NCBI GenBank assembly: GCA_043819555.1
Contig: JBDREQ010000003.1
Span: 1 to 64,000 of the forward strand
DNA: 64,000 nucleotides
Reading direction: 5' to 3'
Origin: Candidatus Zixiibacteriota bacterium
GTDB taxonomy: Bacteria > Zixibacteria > MSB-5A5 > GN15 > JAAZOE01
Part shown: positions 45,001 through 48,000 of the stretch, one piece after another
How the letters are laid out: the number at the start of each line of letters is the position of its first letter
Numbering within the stretch: position 1 is the stretch's first letter
Position numbers: made by a program

Positions 45001-48000
45001 TGGCGAGTTTCTCATACTTCTGGGTACCTGGTCGTATAACAAAGTGTACGCGGTGCTGGCCGCTTCGGGAGTTATCTTTGCCGCATGTTATATGCTGTGG
45101 ATGTACCAGCGAGTATTCTTTGGCAAGTTGACCAACCCGGCCAATGAAAAGTTGCTGGATCTGGATTTGCGAGAGAAGATAGTTCTGATACCATTAGTCA
45201 TCATGATATTCTGGATTGGGATTTATCCTAAACCGTTTTTCACTCTCTTGGAACCCGCTGTTAAGGATGTGATTGCCCGGGTTGAGCAGGGCCGGGCTGA
45301 GTATGAAGCGTACAGTCAATTAACGGATGATGAAATTGCCGTCTCCAAGATGATTGTCGAAGCCACCAGGGAGAGCGAATAATGCCAAACGTTAAAATGT
45401 TTACCAAGCCCGGTTGTCCTTATTGCGCAGCGGCGCGAGAGAATTACAACGACCGGGGCGTTGAGTTTGAGGATATCAACGTTATAGATAATCCTCGGGC
45501 ACAGGAAGAATTATTAAAGTTATCCAACGGTGAGAGGATTGTGCCTGTTATCGTAGATAGTGGTGAAGTAAAATTAGGCTGGGGCGGAAGCTGAGGGTTT
45601 TAACTCTTGAGCGGTCGTGAACCGCGCCTTTCGCTAACGGAGAAAAACTATGTCGCAATTAAGTGCGGCCATCAATTTGAATATATTACTGCCGGAAATA
45701 ACTCTGCTTACGGCGGCTTTTATCCTATTGGTTTTTATTCCCCTGATGAAGCAAAAGATATTTTCAGTCGCATTGACAGTAATAGCCGCCCTGGCTTCCC
45801 TGATGTTCGTTGTCAAGTCATGGAATGATCCGCAGTCCGCTTATTTTGGCATGGTTGTCTGCGATAATTTCTCTCTGTTTTGCAAAGCTATTTTTCTATT
45901 CACCTGCGGTTCGGTCGCCATGCTATCGCGCGATTACCTGAAAAGCCGGGGATTGGATCGCCCCGAATATTATGCAATGCTATTGATATCTACGGCCGGT
46001 ATGATGTTCATGGTCTCATCTTCGGATTTGATGGTCATTTTTATCGGACTGGAAATCATGTCGCTCCCGCTTTATGTCCTGGCCGGCTACTTGCGAGATA
46101 ATCTGCGCTCAAACGAATCGGCCGCCAAGTATTTCTTTATGGGCGCCTTTGCTTCTGCCTTTCTTCTATATGGCATCGCGCTAGTATACGGCGGTACAGG
46201 GACAACCGATCTGGTCAAAATATATACTTCAACCGGTATTGCGATTCATCAGTTCCCAATGTATTTCCTGATTGGGGCGGCGCTGGTATTGATCGGTTTC
46301 GCCTTCAAAATCGCATCGTTCCCGTTCCATATGTGGGTGCCTGATGTATATCAGGGCGCCCCTACGCCGATTACTGCTTTTTTCTCAATTGGGCCAAAGG
46401 CGGCCGGAGTGGCAACTTTGTTGCGTATTTTTATGATTGGATTCTGGAGTGTATTTGATACCTACGGACCGCTCTTCTGGATGCTGGCCTTCCTGACCAT
46501 GACGGTTGGCAATATTCTGGCGTTGATGCAAATCGACGTCAAACGAATGCTGGCCTATAGTTCTATCGCCCATGCCGGATATCTATTGGTGGCGGTGACG
46601 GCTGGAAGCAATGACGCGGTTTCGGCGGCGCTGTTTTATCTGCTGGCATACAGCTTTTTCAATATGGGCGCCTTCGCGATTGTCACGCTAATAGAAAACA
46701 AAACCAAATCAAATGATATTCAATCGTTCCGGGGATTGAGCTCAAAACATCCCTGGTTGGCCGTGTTTTTAGCTTTATTCATGTTCTCGCTGGCGGGATT
46801 TCCACCGACGGCCGGATTTATGGCGAAATTTTATGTCTTCTCGGCGGCGGTGAAATCGGGTCTGGTCTGGCTGGTTGTCGCAGCTGTAATAAACAGTTTG
46901 ATATCCGTTTATTATTATTTTCGCCCCCTCAAGGTGGCTTTTTTTGATAAAGCAGAGGGCGATGATATTCCCGCCAAGGGTTTAACGCTTAGTCCGTTAT
47001 TTGTGATAGTCTTAATTTTGACCGGTTTGGGTTCAATTGGATTGGGGATATTTCCAGGTTATTTCATCGACCTCGCCGCGTCTTCTGGTCTGATAATTCT
47101 GTAAAAGAAATTCTGAATTCTGCATGGCTCTCAATTGATTCTATAACGCATACATACAGGGCAACGGGCCGCCTTTGAAGATATTATTAATCATATAAAC
47201 CGCATCGCCGACATTGCCCTGGCCATCACAGTTGGCGTCGGCTTCTTTGGGATGTACCGGGCCGGGACCGCCTTTGAATACCATGTTGATGATATAGACG
47301 GCATCGCCGACATTGAAATTGCCGTCGTTATTGGCGTCGCCTGACATTTCCCAGACCGTGTAAGTATAATCAAATAAGATTGCTGTTTCATCGCCGATGA
47401 TATTTTCCTCAGGTAATCCCCGAATGACATAAGGCGTAGTCGAGCAACCCTGGGCCGCGATGCCAATCGTCGCGGTTTGCTCCAGACCGGTAGTGCCGAC
47501 CGATTTATATTGGAATTTTATATTTCCATTTTTACTCAGAATAATCTGAAAGGTCGTCAAAGTATCATCGGATGAATTGAAATTGCCGACCTTATTGTAT
47601 TGAACGATAAATGTATCCCGTTCAGGCGAACGATAATAATATACTCGTCCATGTCCGCCAATTCCTGGATCCATATTAAGATCATTCCAGAAAGGCGAAA
47701 TTACCGTTTTAAAAGGCGCCCCGGGAATATCAAGATCATCGTAAAATCCTTCAAAATTGACATCGGCATCGGTAAAGGAAACGGCTCCGTTGGCACCCAA
47801 ATAAATTTCACTATAAGCGGTATCATAAAAGGGAAAATCAAATTCCAGGGCGATCGGCCCAAACGAACCATCATCAAGGATATCAACCGATGTATAATTA
47901 TTATACCACAGATGAGACGGAGCGATATAACCCATCGATTCGATATTGATCCAGTTGTATTCGGCATCGGCATGATCAGGATATATCGTCGGAAAATAAG

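Follow-up and report, generated by a model that had tools for sequence, protein, structure and literature searches.

A predicted Uxx-star glutaredoxin-like selenoprotein is encoded between nuoM and nuoN of the complex I operon in Zixibacteria and followed by a putative SECIS hairpin beyond its stop codon

Among described proteins, the nearest to the one considered here are the members of the Uxx-star family of glutaredoxin-like (seleno)proteins (NF041212, with the sub-models NF041114, NF041211 and NF047338), which have the same fold, length and U-x-x-stop end and a SECIS past the stop codon. Passages of the review PMC13188914 list UXX-star families, citing Haft and Tolstoy 2025, raise the possibility that Sec in such proteins is a metal ligand, and state no function for the Uxx-star family. 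The HUGP/GUXX-star fusion selenoprotein of Chloroflexi (NF045501) carries a close Uxx-star domain with CPYC, a GGG-U-x-x-stop end and a post-stop hairpin; it is fused to a C-GCAxxG-C-C-type domain, which was not found in the genome studied here, and does not lie in a nuo operon. NrdH-redoxins and dithiol glutaredoxins (PDB 4fiw, 3zij, 7c10 and 3grx) share the fold, the CPYC motif and a proline at the cis-Pro position, whereas the chain described below is predicted to pass from strand 4 into a terminal Gly-Sec arm where those proteins have a helix, scores below the HMM cut-offs of those families and, unlike dithiol glutaredoxins, belongs to a host without a glutathione synthetase match.

A G-loop hairpin outside the coding region is likewise on record: part of a preprint on SaoC places one after a terminal UGA-UAG (Haft and Gwadz, bioRxiv 10.1101/2022.07.06.499078), SaoC and KCU-star being different proteins that carry Cys-Sec at their very end rather than U-x-x. 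For complex I, the comparison is with mitochondria, in which thioredoxin-fold NDUFA2 (B8) binds the homologue of NuoG (the 75 kDa subunit) and is a proposed redox sensor, according to passages of PMC8762328, and in which Grx2 acts on complex I thiols, according to passages of PMC2529008. This is an analogy only: human cells need NDUFA2, Grx2 works with glutathione, and neither contains selenium. Among the matches listed in our literature search, no title or abstract opening links a protein of this kind to a nuo operon; Haft and Tolstoy 2025 and the supplements of the Haft papers may bear on the matter. The operon placement, of which we found no description, sets a known selenoprotein family in a new context; the family itself and a SECIS past the stop have been seen before.

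The window analyzed here is a stretch of 64,000 nucleotides of contig JBDREQ010000003.1 from Candidatus Zixiibacteriota bacterium (GCA_043819555.1), with the following features:

32595..47104, plus strand: nuoA-N operon of 14 genes, including the N-module nuoEFG (open reading frames; a Pfam and NCBIfam match for each subunit)
43811..45382, plus strand: nuoM (sequence; TIGR01972, 632 bits against a cut-off of 264)
45382..45603, plus strand: gene for the Uxx-star glutaredoxin-like predicted selenoprotein, 73 residues (translation; NF041212, 110 bits; model pLDDT 94.8)
45415..45426, plus strand: CPYC motif, Cys12 to Cys15 (orthologue comparison)
45592..45594, plus strand: in-frame TGA, the probable codon for Sec71 (129/129 loci; Cys homologues; variation of downstream codons)
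45601..45603, plus strand: true stop codon, TAA in the window (stop usage over 129 loci)
45611..45625, plus strand: putative apical hairpin of the SECIS, intergenic, with a 5-bp stem and the loop CGUGA (covariation; per-locus criteria; like geometry at selD)
45650..47104, plus strand: nuoN (sequence; TIGR01770, 454 bits against a cut-off of 333)

The nuoM stop codon TAA (45380-45382) shares one nucleotide with the ATG that begins at 45382, giving TAATG; the sequence and the subunit profile matches thereby bear out the initial annotation, which had placed a 73-residue CPYC glutaredoxin between nuoM and nuoN with this overlap. The TGA is followed by GGG, TTT and TAA, and the GGAG ribosome-binding motif of nuoN (45639-45642) lies just 3' of the hairpin. 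Read with the TGA as Sec, the protein has 73 residues, with CPYC at 12-15 and the C-terminal sequence GGS-U-GF; the product expected from a gene caller ends at the TGA and has 70. The genome is 97% complete and contains the Sec machinery (tRNA-Sec, SelA, SelB and SelD), its selD itself having an in-frame TGA. On the 5' side of the operon, an MFS transporter gene (window 29370-30807) is apparently split into two overlapping ORFs of 142 and 344 aa; on the 3' side, a subtilase with a dockerin-like domain (47141-49903, minus strand) converges on nuoN.

To place this copy among its relatives, we drew loci from 129 of the 191 genomes with a strong match, a nonrandom sample picked by score and so as to cover every gene-bearing family. 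TGA, two codons and a stop end the gene in all 129 orthologous loci, extending a pattern claimed earlier for 29 of 29. The codon after the TGA encodes Gly in 119 loci, using all four third bases; the next encodes Phe in 103, Ile in 15, Tyr in 10 and Val in 1; and the true stop is TAA in 78, TGA in 32 and TAG in 19. Cys takes the place of Sec in the homologues P0022, P0060, P0063, P0074 and P0085, and the NF041212 score of 102.3 bits for the protein ended at the TGA rises to 110 when the tail is included. Since the TGA is constant, the codons after it vary as those of a protein do, and Cys homologues exist, these comparisons support reading the TGA as selenocysteine. In the 32 genomes with a TGA stop, two UGAs nine bases apart apparently differ in how they are decoded, with Sec at one and termination at the other.

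The hairpin beyond the stop codon was examined by covariation and locus by locus. When the 30 best loci were aligned with MAFFT, no structure being supplied, 146 of 146 cells of the 5-bp stem were paired, with two-sided changes at all five pairs; because the 30 genomes are kin, the count from shuffles is an inflated control and gives no probability, although slid controls of the same alignment, at 20-64% paired, still fall far lower. This supplies the covariation test that the initial annotation had lacked. By per-locus criteria (stem of -5 kcal/mol or better, G(G/U) in the first two loop places and a spacing of 14-23 nt), 118 of 128 loci qualify, one truncated locus being left out, against 2.3% of dinucleotide shuffles; the initial annotation had noted a short stem with a G-rich loop in single-sequence folds. 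Spacing from the UGA is 14-23 nt in the family (at least 16 nt in 125 of 128 called hairpins) and 21 nt in the window, where the apical stem alone reaches -5.8 kcal/mol. The bSECIS model threshold is -7.5 kcal/mol, a value attained by 92 of 128 loci versus 3.4% of shuffles; the window region itself has z = -0.26, and its minimum-energy fold differs from the hairpin. A like geometry, read by eye, stands behind the TGA of the genome's selD. A second alignment of 46 distant loci was not counted, its loop lengths differing and its 3' arms being out of register. The Rfam scan returned two matches, both far below the gathering score, and nothing for the hairpin, and the promoter and terminator scan stayed at chance level.

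These data support the assignment of the hairpin as a SECIS that lies beyond the true stop, and it agrees in loop, spacing and compensatory pairing with the bSECIS model as given in passages of PMC13188914. The position outside the coding region had been put forward as one of two new points, the other being the operon placement. The position is supported, but the short U-x-x-stop tail forces it and it is family-wide: of 80 loci recovered in a metagenome scan, 76 are Uxx-star-like, and in nearly all of these a hairpin of this kind follows the UGA at 15-23 nt; the Chloroflexi fusion genes have a post-stop hairpin too. SaoC is a further precedent. Use of a 3'-UTR SECIS in E. coli was reportedly described in a 2005 paper. 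The statement that bacterial SECIS elements lie inside coding regions, which the initial annotation took from PMC13188914, is best read as a generalization, the tabulated families of that review including UXX-star. One clade of homologues (L343, L346, L347, L350 and similar) ends in U-x-x-x-stop (U-TVH) with the same hairpin, and several of its genes are divergent from rpiA.

Were the TGA an ordinary stop, the product would have 70 residues, and the hairpin might serve mRNA stability or translation of nuoN. The energetic weakness of the window's own hairpin would suit this, as would the stem remnants left in some deletion scars (G142 and G047). However, the TGA is constant in 129 of 129 loci when the next stop varies, the two codons between them vary synonymously, Cys homologues exist, the profile score improves with the tail, and a like hairpin stands at an equal distance in homologues outside nuo operons; we therefore give an ordinary stop almost no credence.

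The protein matches NF041212 with 110 bits against a cut-off of 66, over positions 1-70 of 70, and has the family's Sec or Cys third from the C-terminus and its glutaredoxin-like fold with an N-terminal active-site Cys. It also exceeds the cut-off of NF041114 (UXX-star family 1; 81.9 versus 72 bits), whose representative has UxxT and two Sec in the table of PMC13188914; the 129 orthologues have CPYC, CPFC, CPHC or CPYS and one Sec each, and we therefore file them under the parent family only. The score against the glutathione-dependent dithiol glutaredoxins (TIGR02181) is 46.9 bits, short of the cut-off of 90, and the model has no final helix. The structure predicted with Sec modeled as Cys (pLDDT 94.8), an NrdH/glutaredoxin domain that lacks the final helix, superposes on 4fiw with Z 10.9 and an rmsd of 1.1 Å over 64 residues. 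DSSP assigns two short strands, 53-54 and 71-72, neither of which has another evident partner. A control fold of the single sequence ended at the TGA does not show the 53-54 strand but, with a pLDDT of 56.8 and residues 49-54 below 50, is too poor to weigh as evidence. Glutathione, in glutaredoxins, pairs with the residue that precedes the cis-proline. From the model we infer that the Gly-Sec-Gly arm occupies the glutathione groove beside Cys12, the tail acting as a tethered substitute for glutathione, and that Cys12 and Sec71 may form the redox pair. The sequences agree with such a pair, since Cys15 is replaceable and Cys12 is not: Cys12 is kept in 129 of 129 orthologues, Cys15 is Ser in 3 of them, and many family members have Thr or Ser at the Cys15 position while Cys12 and the tail Sec or Cys stay.

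No GshB match was found in the host's 97% complete assembly; BshC and thioredoxin reductase are present, and searches of this genome for YpdA and BrxA/B found neither. The bshC gene (contig C25 of G000, 35171-36643) lies close to tRNA-Sec (38574-38668), and in many relatives it is near selA.

We propose the following sequence of events. SelB would bind the hairpin that lies between the genes, about 21 nt downstream of the UGA; Sec would be inserted, two more codons would be read and the chain would end, a step that is well supported. A second UGA nine bases on would be too near the hairpin for recoding and would serve as stop in a quarter of the genomes. The product would be a minimal NrdH/glutaredoxin domain with a Gly-rich arm in place of the last helix, as the model suggests, and this arm would fold onto the strand before the cis-proline, the glutathione site of glutaredoxins, bringing Sec71 to Cys12. 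The enzyme may then work as a glutathione-independent oxidoreductase that cycles through a Cys12-Sec71 bond and is probably re-reduced by thioredoxin reductase. Judged from gene order, it would be translated together with the NADH-oxidizing 14-subunit complex I and serve as an optional maintenance factor, perhaps repairing oxidized thiols or removing peroxide near the flavin and Fe-S arm (NuoEFG) rather than acting as a required subunit.

Of the 285 genomes of the phylum, 206 have a match to the gene at E<=1e-3, 191 of them strong and 15 weak; within the order the figures are 145 of 159 (143 strong), close to the 139 of 159 counted earlier. Both nuoM upstream and nuoN downstream flank 124 of the 129 loci, the remaining five running into a contig end on one side, so the placement claimed for 29 of 29 loci extends to the larger sample; no relocated copy appears among these 129 loci, which span 11 families. 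The description of place and UGA as fixed across much of the phylum needs qualification at the family level, where 11 of 20 families bear the gene and 9 do not; these nine (71 genomes) and one further genus yielded no strong match, alignment profile included. Median identity to the window's copy is 54%, beside 57% for NuoA and 51% each for NuoJ and NuoN. Among the 126 loci with a called start, 78 have a start codon that overlaps the stop of nuoM, two of the 78 being large overlaps that are probably miscalls. Nuo-linked copies labeled Ignavibacteriales or Calditrichaeota were considered as cases from other phyla; their proteins fall within the same sequence group, so the labels were not accepted. 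In one locus (L070, G178) the nuoM-nuoN interval holds a frameshifted but otherwise intact copy, through early decay or an assembly error.

Outside the nuo setting the picture differs. In 60 of the 76 Uxx-star-like metagenome loci there is no nuo gene within the DNA available around them, and this neighborhood is the one respect in which the fixed nuoM-nuoN copies differ from the family. Neighbors outside the phylum are varied (62 of 102 neighboring ORFs scanned), and in a tree of 125 70-residue proteins, which has low support, nuo-linked and other copies interleave such that no donor or direction is readable. One group of homologues outside nuo operons has DUF498 (PF04430) upstream (L314:2555-2914, L315:1494-1853 and L319:2282-2920), probably a single event; DUF498 is the family to which NDUFAF3, an assembly factor of mitochondrial complex I, belongs. 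The window's genome has a second complex I-like operon without nuoEFG, in which the selenoprotein gene is not present; it lies on contig C68 of G000 at about 2000-11900 on the minus strand, with 40-49% identity for most subunits found, and most genomes searched have a second nuoN.

Genomes without the gene show what its absence entails. Of 30 nuoN loci from such genomes, 27 have nuoM directly upstream. Among 23 long gene-less regions, 18 have the operon in one piece (the other five being partial or different operons), and 16 of the 18 have all 14 subunits in place, two lacking a match to nuoI only. In a tree of 55 operons, the gene occurs on both sides of the midpoint root, and gene-less operons take nine separate positions, one of them root-dependent, implying about nine separate losses. 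Scars in place, with a start, the last few codons or a stem left, are seen in G142, G046, G047 and G033, and G185 has a clean deletion; several further absences are contig ends and uninformative. SelA is found in 264 of 285 genomes and in nearly all gene-less families, so genomes that lose the gene do not thereby lose Sec. Bacillithiol synthesis does not track the gene at the family level (BshC in 241 of 285; G234 and G235 have the gene without BshC), nor does cytochrome c oxidase (CtaD in 158 of 285); the four scarred genomes all lack an oxidase match, a weak hint only, as 42% of the order does so.

Alignments of the 14 subunits (35-37 operons with the gene and 16-18 without; 6 of 61 regions, being partial, were set aside) were searched for Nuo residues that follow it. 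Ten columns passed a crude filter and none separates the groups: recent-loss genomes keep the residue typical of gene-bearing operons, or a similar one, at the filtered columns, and NuoF Cys97 follows clade, not gene. Because nine of 20 families lack the gene, losses number about nine, scars lie in place and no Nuo cysteine tracks it, we regard the gene as dispensable; with many relatives having complex I and not the gene, its product is at most an optional helper.

The initial annotation saw in the gene a redox partner made together with complex I. With start and nuoM stop overlapping in 78 of 126 loci, co-expression may fairly be deduced from the sequences; partnership is harder to uphold for a gene repeatedly lost from intact operons, and clients in complex I are suggested more weakly than the Cys12-Sec71 pair. 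We tentatively favor an optional Cys12/Sec71 oxidoreductase that is produced along with the 14-subunit complex I and acts in its service. The absence of relocation in 129 genomes, the presence of the gene on both sides of the midpoint root, its coupling to nuoM, its core-like conservation and a second operon that lacks it all point toward a tie; the intact gene-less operons, the losses, the absence of a covarying Nuo column and the 60 homologous loci without a nuo gene point away from one. The latter observations would also fit a general cytoplasmic oxidoreductase that was inserted once in a highly expressed operon, bears no special relation to complex I, and stays since operon-breaking rearrangements are costly, a history that we find doubtful but take seriously. 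In its favor, losses occurred in place with nuoA-N intact, neighborhoods elsewhere are varied and include the Chloroflexi fusion to a C-GCAxxG-C-C-type domain, and the nuo operon takes in other genes, as a methyltransferase-like gene in the operons of two other families illustrates. Conservation equal to several core subunits and the gene's absence from the operon without nuoEFG speak against it, and so would the constant position over 129 loci and 11 families, were it not that trapping explains this equally well.

More specific roles appear less probable than the optional oxidoreductase. A dedicated selenoprotein partner of Zixibacterial complex I, with the Gly-Sec-Gly tail as a built-in seleno-glutathione, that exchanges electrons with or repairs the NuoEFG arm as a glutathione-free counterpart of control by Grx2 and NDUFA2, is unlikely. 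A role in Fe-S or metal supply for complex I assembly is improbable; here, Cys12 and the tethered Sec71 would stand in for the Cys and glutathione ligands of cluster-binding glutaredoxins, and a dimer of the protein might hold a [2Fe-2S] cluster, or coordinate a soft metal, where the host lacks glutathione. The tail position suggested by the model, the missing glutathione synthetase, the metal-ligand role considered for Sec in UXX-star proteins and the demand of complex I for many Fe-S clusters would favor such a role. However, Pro13 does not vary among the aligned orthologues, cluster binding in glutaredoxins is usually blocked when proline follows the first cysteine, and gene-less lineages keep the same Fe-S subunits. 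By analogy with NDUFA2 (passages of PMC8762328), the protein might also be a stoichiometric accessory subunit, which operon position and translational coupling, implying near 1:1 synthesis, would suit; we hold this to be very improbable, as the gene is frequently lost with the subunits visibly unchanged, and the same passages describe an NDUFA2 that lacks CxxC and propose that it compensates for a domain still present in bacterial NuoG. An NDUFA2-like subunit would be kept wherever the complex is kept, and 18 operons lack the gene.

An old, position-fixed site coupled to complex I would name NuoE, NuoF and NuoG as candidate substrates, and close relatives with and without the gene offer natural comparison pairs. 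Should the dedicated partner reading be true, the Uxx-star family would gain its first functional handle; should the gene be no more than a passenger, what is left is a three-residue annotation fix in about 190 genomes. The 129 loci also form a clean natural set for bacterial Sec decoding, with a SECIS free of coding constraint.

Two observations concern families without the gene. In f16 and f17, four of five regions have a gene of 242-253 aa between nuoL and nuoM (L243:13389-14117, L244:3806-4531, L245:13369-14127 and L246:13313-14059), and the two of them that were scanned resemble class I methyltransferases; methyltransferase-fold assembly factors for complex I are known from mitochondria, and this gene may deserve attention in its own right. 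Another glutaredoxin-like gene, whose active-site motif begins with TGA (UxxC), was seen in L259-L264 and L266-L271, from families f6, f7, f8, f13, f14 and f15; it does not lie beside nuoM or nuoN, several of its families lack the nuo-linked gene, and it is a possible functional replacement.
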